The notes beneath the pieces are model-generated. The model was not told the DNA's origin. It saw only the letters and a program-made list of their open reading frames with translations, and made no database searches. Positions 4,399 through 5,233 of a DNA stretch of 6,190 nucleotides are shown piece after piece. A program made the position numbers and the translations under genes. The DNA comes from a virus (lineage: Duplodnaviria > Heunggongvirae > Uroviricota > Caudoviricetes), in IMG/VR virus record IMGVR_UViG_2728369553_000007; one strand, given 5' to 3'. Position 1 is the stretch's first letter; every line of letters starts with the position of its first letter.

Positions 4399-5172
4399 TC
4401 AAAAATTAGGTGAGTAACGGACCGGGGACATAGCTCCTTTTTTTCTTAATTCATCTGGTATTTTTTTTCCAAGATAAAGATTTGCTATTTCAGGTGGGGC
4501 TTCTCGACCTTCAAAACCATAGCGAGAACTTTGTGTTGCCTCAAAGTCCGGATCCTCGTCCCAGTATTTCATCGTAGGGAAATTTTCACGTGTTGATTTG
4601 AGCCATTTATCAGCAATGAAAACCCCTCGAACGATCCCCCTTACAGTAGCAAGAATGACTTCTGCTTGGCTGGCGCGAGAGACATTAATGCGCCAGCTAA
4701 ATCGAACCGCATCATAAAGCTCTGAATCCTTTGCACTTCTGTTAACGGAAATCATTAATGCTTTATGATGAAATGTTATGGTTTCGGGTTGATATGTTGC
4801 TATCAACTCTTTGACATGCGCGGCGCCGAATTCATTGCTGCCAGCACCATTCATGATATTCGTTAACCCAGGGTAGGCATCAATAAGTGCTGCTTCAACT
4901 TCGTACGCCGTCTTTTCATCAGTCATTCCATGTCGATGGATGACATGGATAACTTCAAGTCCCGCTAATCTTATTTCTCTAATTTGCTTTAGCTTGTTGC
5001 TCAGTAACTCGTCATCATCAGTCGCTGCCACTTCACCGCGCATATGGGCAAATACGCGGTTACCTTTGCCTTTCCCTACATAGAAGGTGCTTCCGTCCCT
5101 CGGATCAATCAATCGGTATACATACCAGCCAAGGTGTTCAATTACTCCAGAAGGAAACTCAGTAATATCCAT
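4399..5172 (-). CDS. GIY-YIG nuclease-domain protein of unknown function (N-terminal GIY-YIG catalytic domain plus ~150-aa uncharacterised C-terminal domain), occupying the slot held by mcrA in E. coli K-12 e14
   Basis: Minus-strand ORF. From the ATG at 5170-5172 the product is 257 aa: [47 protein letters not shown].... This contains the GIY motif (WYVYRL), the YIG motif (FYVGKG), then Arg and His (NRVFAH), a downstream glutamate (YEVEAAL) and an asparagine (TNIMNG), in the order and spacing of GIY-YIG nucleases (UvrC, I-TevI, Eco29kI). The protein has no cysteine and no HNH or zinc motif, so it is not McrA. The ORF-track start is a TTG at 5223; ATG 5172 is preferred because a promoter-like element overlaps 5205-5233, but no clear Shine-Dalgarno precedes either start. 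The gene is visibly more AT-rich than the tail genes. Confidence 0.7.
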
Positions 5173-5204
5173 TTTGCAATATCTATGAATTATTTGTGAG
5201 ACGT

Positions 5205-5233
5205 ATATTAATGAACATTGCAAGGGCTCACAA
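5205..5233 (-). promoter_or_regulatory. Candidate sigma70 promoter for the GIY-YIG gene
   Basis: On the minus strand: TTGTGA (plus 5228-5233), 17-bp spacer, TAATAT (plus 5205-5210), about 35 nt upstream of the ATG at 5172. Pattern match only. Confidence 0.25.

Follow-up and report, generated by a model that had tools for sequence, protein, structure and literature searches.

A near-identical relative of the restriction endonuclease PD-T4-3 (CMoRE) in a hairpin-bounded cassette beside the invertase gene of an e14-like prophage

We analysed a 6,190-nt stretch of tailed-phage DNA (Caudoviricetes; IMG/VR record IMGVR_UViG_2728369553_000007), referred to below as the window. It carries a minus-strand gene converging with the serine invertase gene pinE, for which an earlier reading of the bare sequence (the original prediction) had proposed a candidate undescribed defence nuclease. 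On the strength of its sequence, the gene is almost certainly an allele of PD-T4-3, alias CMoRE. The gene and its parts are arranged as follows:

4399..5172, minus strand: CMoRE/PD-T4-3 coding sequence, 257 amino acids plus stop, identical to RefSeq WP_000355484.1
4828..5172, minus strand: N-terminal GIY-YIG part, with Y17/Y19/Y31 of 'GIYxY-YIG', R39, E93 and N105 (PF22945)
5008..5019, minus strand: codons D52-D53-D54-E55, acidic autoinhibitory loop over the active site, located by sequence, with the function taken from the O157:H7 4A mutant (PMC12923530)
4402..4812, minus strand: C-terminal modification-sensing domain, residues 121-257, including Y127
5173..5360, minus strand: non-coding region upstream of CMoRE, presumed to hold the native promoter

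The open reading frame (ORF) listed for this strand spans 4399..5223 from a TTG start and would encode 274 residues; the ATG at 5172 yields the 257-residue protein (MDITEF...SPNF), and the RefSeq CDS WP_000355484.1, annotated in identical genomic sequence as a 'LEM-3-like GIY-YIG domain-containing protein', is exactly this version. The minus-strand frame of about 257 residues in the original prediction is the same CDS, although the end that it gave (5233) overshoots the ATG by 61 nt. The protein has zero cysteines and carries WYVYRL (residues 16-21), FYVGKG (30-35) and NRVFAH (38-43, including Arg39), and Arg39, Glu93 and Asn105 are nearly invariant in a family alignment of 40 sequences; the absence of cysteine and the GIY-YIG motif set with its downstream Glu and Asn had both been read correctly. 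A Pfam scan assigns residues 28-110 to LEM-3_GIY-YIG (PF22945, E=2.1e-14, 54.2 bits against a cut-off of 27), which places the protein in the GIY-YIG superfamily as the original prediction expected of such a search; the classic GIY-YIG model PF01541 fell under its cut-off in the same scan (E=0.067, 13.9 bits versus 22.6). Residues 111-257 have no Pfam match, consistent with the earlier description of a C-terminal half without a family, and an NCBIfam search of the protein returned no match. The gene has a GC content of 43.5%. The AT-rich contrast with the tail genes drawn earlier holds for the baseplate genes (58-60%); the tail-fibre, assembly and pin genes, at 43-52%, do not show it.

Dedicated models identify the protein from end to end. 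The PADLOC model for PD-T4-3 (PDLC04031) matches with E=2.4e-140 and has positions 1-255 of its 256 covered, and phrog_5356 matches with E=2e-143. Against the crystallised PD-T4-3 of Escherichia coli O157:H7 (PDB 9U75/9U8D, E=3.7e-172), 253 of 257 residues are identical (98.4%), the four substitutions being T51A, E55D, Q169K and N197H (window residue first); the enzyme of avian pathogenic E. coli (APEC) O1 (PDB 9U7U/9U7Z) is also matched, with E=1.1e-150. Every residue named in the structural study is kept (Y17, Y19, Y31, R80, V92, L96, Y127 and D52-D53-D54-E55), and the acidic run reads DDDE in the window, DDDD in O157:H7 and DDDE in APEC O1. At residue 197 (window 4582-4584), the Asn of the window is invariant across the 40-sequence alignment; the crystallised O157:H7 protein has His. 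The features of the PD-T4-3/CMoRE family are all present: a full-length profile match, GIYxY-YIG with its Arg and Glu, the acidic loop, a C-terminal sensing domain with the CMoRE fold and a single-gene organization.

Comparison with these relatives predicts, with high confidence, a working type IV restriction endonuclease for 5-hydroxymethylcytosine (5hmC) and glucosyl-5hmC, the expression and specificity of the window allele being read across from its homologues. The system is already known: it has been described, mechanistically dissected and crystallised. The claim of novelty therefore fails, since the protein belongs to an already characterised restriction-enzyme family, an outcome that the original prediction had itself listed as refuting, and the PADLOC run that it suggested recovers a known system (PD-T4-3, PMC9519451; CMoRE, PMC12923530). 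Its functional proposal, a modification-dependent anti-phage nuclease whose C-terminal domain recognizes the target, is borne out by the near-identical characterised enzyme; a blind reading of raw sequence had reached the right function. A confident annotation as PD-T4-3/CMoRE can take the place of its present LEM-3-like label.

PD-T4-3 was found and validated by functional selection (Vassallo et al. 2022; clone T4-16, 'COG3680 (GIY-YIG)'), with a second clone carrying a 100% identical PD-T4-3 in a different genome context; the name appears in Table S1 of that study and not in its main text (PMC9519451). Liu et al. 2026 renamed it CMoRE and provided biochemistry and structures (9U75, 9U8D, 9U7U and 9U7Z; PMC12923530). 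In that work CMoRE gave ~5 logs of protection against T2, T4 and T6; the O157:H7 and Klebsiella pneumoniae alleles reached ~5 logs from native promoters, and the APEC O1 allele was far weaker from its native promoter until placed under a T7 promoter (PMC12923530). DNA containing 5hmC or glucosyl-5hmC was cleaved in vitro in a Mg2+/Mn2+-dependent manner, with cytosine and 5-methylcytosine (5mC) DNA left uncut; correspondingly T4(hmC) was sensitive and T4(C) resistant, and arabinosyl-hmC phages were barely restricted (PMC12923530). Cleavage follows CN11/N9G with 2-nt 3' overhangs, needs two 5hmC sites and shows no strict sequence specificity (PMC12923530). The 'GIYxY-YIG' active site comprises Y17, Y19 and Y31, each mutated in the study, and active-site mutants lose defence; a 15-residue acidic loop between alpha2 and alpha3 acts as a safety catch whose 4A mutant cuts ordinary DNA and is toxic (PMC12923530). 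The functional form is tetrameric, with oligomerisation abolished by V92S/L96S, and the C-terminal domain binds 5hm-dCTP, which contacts the Y127 main chain (PMC12923530).

Growth curves at a multiplicity of infection (MOI) above 1 indicate direct defence, on which ground an abortive-infection toxin was rejected (PMC12923530); a repair-nuclease reading of CMoRE was likewise discarded. In the clinical isolate NILS69, deletion of PD-T4-3 conferred sensitivity to Tevenvirinae phages, and one T-even-like phage escaped the system at its native level (bioRxiv 10.1101/2024.12.20.629700). A Capnocytophaga homologue (48% identical) is also a modification-dependent nuclease; it degrades the DNA of T4 and spares that of T4-GT7, and high concentrations of it cut Mom-modified Mu DNA as well (PMC12366544). 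T-even defence or 5hmC cleavage is on record for the O157:H7, APEC O1, K. pneumoniae, ECOR68 and NILS69 alleles, and the window allele would be expected to behave alike.

By analogy, the C-terminal domain would bind 5hmC or glucosyl-5hmC in incoming phage DNA, and the protein would assemble as a tetramer (a dimer of dimers), in which a dimer would read two modified cytosines ~21 bp apart (CN11/N9G). Using Mg2+ or Mn2+, the N-terminal GIY-YIG domain (Y17/Y19/Y31, Arg39 and Glu93) would then make a staggered double-strand cut with 2-nt 3' overhangs, and the acidic lid (D52-E55) would bar unmodified host DNA from the active site. T-even phage DNA would be degraded directly, without abortive infection. 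These steps were demonstrated experimentally for the 98.4%-identical O157:H7 enzyme; our analysis contributes the gene, its motifs, the near-identity and the cassette context.

The sensor domain was modelled with the 40-sequence alignment, a single-sequence AF2 model being unusable (pLDDT 36.5). The original prediction had suggested a fold search for PUA, EVE or SRA relatives. Foldseek matches to PUA-like readers (EVE, YTH and ASCH) were borderline (E >= 0.07), and the Pfam scan gave no sequence-profile match linking the domain to such readers; the depositors found no sequence or structural homologue of the C-terminal domain and place the ligand at the domain edge, not in a pocket (PMC12923530). 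That the CMoRE sensor may be a diverged PUA-like reader is no more than a hint; if true, such an origin would connect it with the sensors (EVE, YTH and ASCH) used by other type IV enzymes. The SRA part of the suggestion did not hold: a sensor of the type used by UHRF, MspJI and PvuRts1I/AbaSI was rejected, SRA readers scoring only 2.2-2.7 against the C-terminal domain. A clear relative of the sensor (E=1.9e-9, 27% identity) was found in the viral structure library BFVD, in a protein annotated as a PD-(D/E)XK nuclease, which fits a sensor module shuffled between nuclease types.

McrA, the restriction enzyme of the K-12 prophage e14, is an HNH nuclease with a different N-terminal sensor that targets 5mC and 5hmC and is blocked by glucosylation. 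Its gene (EcoKMcrA) is co-directional with pinE, whereas CMoRE is convergent; once past the pinE stop codon it has no sequence similarity to CMoRE, and hairpin copies do not flank it. An HNH/McrA relative was rejected, with no HNH match in Pfam and no alignment to K-12 mcrA DNA beyond that codon. The relation between the two is one of functional analogy and a shared slot only, so that the earlier statement that the gene 'replaces mcrA' stands for the slot and not as a homologous replacement (GIY-YIG rather than HNH, in the opposite orientation and with no sequence similarity). PvuRts1I/AbaSI share the substrate class of CMoRE (5hmC/5ghmC) through unrelated domains, and cut between two modified cytosines ~21-22 bp apart at ~N11-12/N9-10 with a 2-nt 3' overhang, nearly the CN11/N9G of CMoRE. 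EVE-HNH and YTH-McrB type IV enzymes (VcaM4I; archaeal McrB N-terminal domains) were compared with the CMoRE sensor within the borderline Foldseek range given above. The UvrC N-terminal domain, Eco29kI, Hpy188I and LEM-3/ANKLE1 have the GIY-YIG fold and the conserved Tyr, Arg and Glu in common with CMoRE, and according to the depositors UvrC is the closest structure to its nuclease (PMC12923530). Unlike UvrC, Eco29kI, Hpy188I and LEM-3, CMoRE has an extra tyrosine (GIYxY) and the 15-residue acidic insert (PMC12923530), and it depends on base modification, with no partner methyltransferase and no repair context. The nearest comparison remains PD-T4-3/CMoRE itself (ECOR68, O157:H7 and APEC O1), alike in family, length and two-domain architecture, with the O157:H7 gene at the same pinE-adjacent position.

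A ~40-nt hairpin, present as two direct copies, encloses the gene and brackets a cassette of ~1.03 kb to the right of pinE:

3784..4338, plus strand: pinE serine invertase, the left neighbour that defines the slot (Pfam Resolvase E=2.6e-52, HTH_7 E=4.6e-13; RefSeq annotation)
4338..4378, no strand assigned: hairpin copy A, left cassette edge, in the gap between pinE and CMoRE; a direct repeat with copy B, at which K-12 e14 homology ends
5361..5400, no strand assigned: hairpin copy B, right cassette edge, upstream of the CMoRE promoter region

Folded as RNA, copy A reaches -26 kcal/mol (z=-5.2 on the plus strand, z=-2.6 on the minus strand); its tails are T-rich on both strands, and a role as a bidirectional terminator is probable. 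A consensus scan found no terminator near CMoRE, but the hairpin loops (11-16 nt) exceed the loop limit of that scan and were hence judged by folding; Rfam reported nothing in the window at gathering thresholds. Elsewhere the hairpin lies at 4302-4333 in prophage locus L003, 4302-4334 in L004, 5004-5036 in L005 and 6027-6060 in L006. In L003 and L004 a lone hairpin links pinE straight to the stretch found beyond copy B in the window, an empty site against the filled one. In the lambdoid prophage L005 homology is limited to window 4338-5369, and in L006, a pin-less e14-like prophage, it extends over 4336-5546. The 1.03-kb cassette, a single-gene system, recurs beside pinE, beside a lambdoid tail-fibre assembly gene or beside acyltransferase and lipase genes, and the hairpin element is present in 2633 of 5426 E. 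coli genomes, in up to five places each. Most simply, recombination at a shared terminator-like sequence would exchange the 1.03-kb module, and the filled and empty sites are direct evidence that CMoRE moves as a hairpin-bounded 1-kb module.

Searching the 5426 complete E. coli genomes with a 1.1-kb query (window 4300-5400) recovered matches of >=80% coverage in 815 (roughly 15%) and any match in 1098. The pinE-CMoRE junction occurs as in the window in 570 genomes, O157:H7 strains included. The protein falls in a cluster identical in many genomes (P0001, 1045 member sequences), within a wider family of 6562 clusters at 90% identity (E <= 1e-5); full-length relatives of 55-60% identity reach distant phyla. 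Full-length homologues with 38-45% identity also occur in virulent jumbo phages, among them Serratia Moabite (6406-7161) and 2050HW, Pseudomonas OBP (158703-159449) and Klebsiella N1M2, where they are annotated as homing nuclease or endonuclease (records H21-H37). A modification-dependent nuclease borne by a jumbo phage could act against competing phages.

Nothing substantive speaks against a working defence enzyme in this prophage, though a few cautions apply. The differences at T51 and E55 fall in or beside the autoinhibitory loop, with E55 present also in the active APEC O1 enzyme. Upstream of CMoRE, a consensus scan gave no minus-strand promoter at its threshold and no Shine-Dalgarno sequence was detected, and the weakness of the APEC O1 allele from its native promoter indicates that expression may differ among alleles (PMC12923530). 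Such expression effects, together with the escape of a T-even-like phage from the native-level system of NILS69 (bioRxiv 10.1101/2024.12.20.629700), would suit a copy that is silent or weakened here and adds little to host immunity. We regard this as quite improbable: the O157:H7 allele, at the same pinE junction, protects by ~5 logs when driven by its native promoter (PMC12923530), the ORF is intact and shared identically by the many genomes of cluster P0001, >=80% of the cassette query is kept in 815 genomes, and the catalytic and interface residues are all conserved. A selfish GIY-YIG homing endonuclease of the I-TevI kind, spreading its own cassette rather than serving in defence, is credible to almost no degree. 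A discrete 1.03-kb cassette in several contexts could be expected of such an element, and the jumbo-phage homologues bear matching labels, but those annotations are names without tested function; the published enzymes leave unmodified DNA uncut and lack strict sequence specificity (PMC12923530). The cassette edges are shared hairpins with no disrupted target gene, PF01541 is under threshold and Pfam finds no NUMOD or IENR1 module in the protein.

In phage Mu it is mom that sits in the slot beside the invertase, which is one argument for a different range of targets, in which the main natural prey of the enzyme would be hypermodified phages beyond T-even 5hmC, for example Mu-like phages that carry the carbamoylmethyl-adenine made by Mom and compete with this prophage, whose tail is Mu-like. 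The family also extends to many phyla in which one would not expect T-even phages, across 84 genera (PMC12923530), and the Capnocytophaga homologue was isolated by selecting against Mu, whose Mom-modified DNA it cuts at high enzyme concentration (PMC12366544). That cleavage took 0.1-1 uM enzyme, however, and the defence was only moderate (PMC12366544); the strong substrates shown for the E. coli enzymes are 5hmC and 5ghmC only, with arabinosyl-hmC phages barely affected (PMC12923530). We therefore think such targets unlikely to be the principal ones, and they would extend, rather than replace, the explanation of the gene as a 5hmC-directed type IV restriction enzyme.

The window shares the gene order ymfQ-stfP-tfaP-tfaE-stfE-pinE with K-12 e14, and its pinE has 88.7% nucleotide identity to K-12 pinE. 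The gene under study lies downstream of and convergent with pinE across a 60-nt gap, as originally described. Homology to e14 is lost from the pinE stop codon onward: there e14 continues with mcrA and the window with CMoRE on the opposite strand. Following the suggestion that occupants of this position be tabulated, we surveyed ten E. coli prophage loci with a pin/tail-fibre module, a sample and not a census, and found CMoRE, McrA, McrBC, Avs2, unknown genes or nothing after pin:

Window (4339 onward) and L001 (strain D2): CMoRE
L002 (K-12 e14), 14347-15180: mcrA
L003, 4822 onward: Avs2
L010, 4100-7173: McrBC-type AAA ATPase and McrC
L009 (343, 114 and 70 amino acids) and L011 (215 and 88 amino acids): small genes without a Pfam or PADLOC match
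L004, L007 and probably L008: slot empty before host genes

Type IV restriction systems account for three of the four known occupants in the sampled e14-like prophages, which suggests that the post-pin slot gathers type IV restriction enzymes and other defences and makes it a cheap place to seek unknown ones. Whether this position is a dedicated site, delimited by hairpins, at which defence cassettes are exchanged is more doubtful; we regard this as a tentative idea, somewhat on the improbable side. If it were true, the cassettes would move by recombination with the ~40-nt hairpin as the handle, and the unassigned occupants of L009 and L011 would become candidate undescribed defence genes, as would two proteins encoded to the right of the cassette. 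The nearer of these is a 139-residue ORF (window 5677-6096, plus strand) with a signal-peptide-like N-terminus (MKYCYLIILSLTISSAQA) and no Pfam, PHROG or PADLOC match. It is followed in D2 (L001 22113-23579, plus strand) by a hypothetical protein of 488 residues with only marginal LmuA and WYL matches (E ~0.004). Between the cargo genes, RefSeq places an 87-nt 'capsid protein' pseudogene (window 5377-5463) that overlaps copy B, a label that looks spurious.

To the left of the slot, 20-nt inverted repeats (window 1784-1803 and 3703-3722; 95% complementary, 1.9 kb apart) flank two opposed pairs of tail-fibre C-terminus and assembly genes beside pinE, the expected invertible host-range segment, which is partly in the opposite orientation in L004. 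Runs of N lie inside the ymfQ-like gene (1336-1366, 31 nt) and one tail-fibre assembly gene (3079-3136, 58 nt); D2, otherwise ~99-100% identical, has ~3-4 nt at these sites, so that the runs look like masking or gaps. In three strains, the end of the prophage that bears CMoRE adjoins a truncated LysR-family gene by paoD/paoC (L001 39200-41101, L005 8842-10300 and L006 7829-10303). This junction differs from the icd site of K-12 e14, the prophage type being alike and the integration site different.
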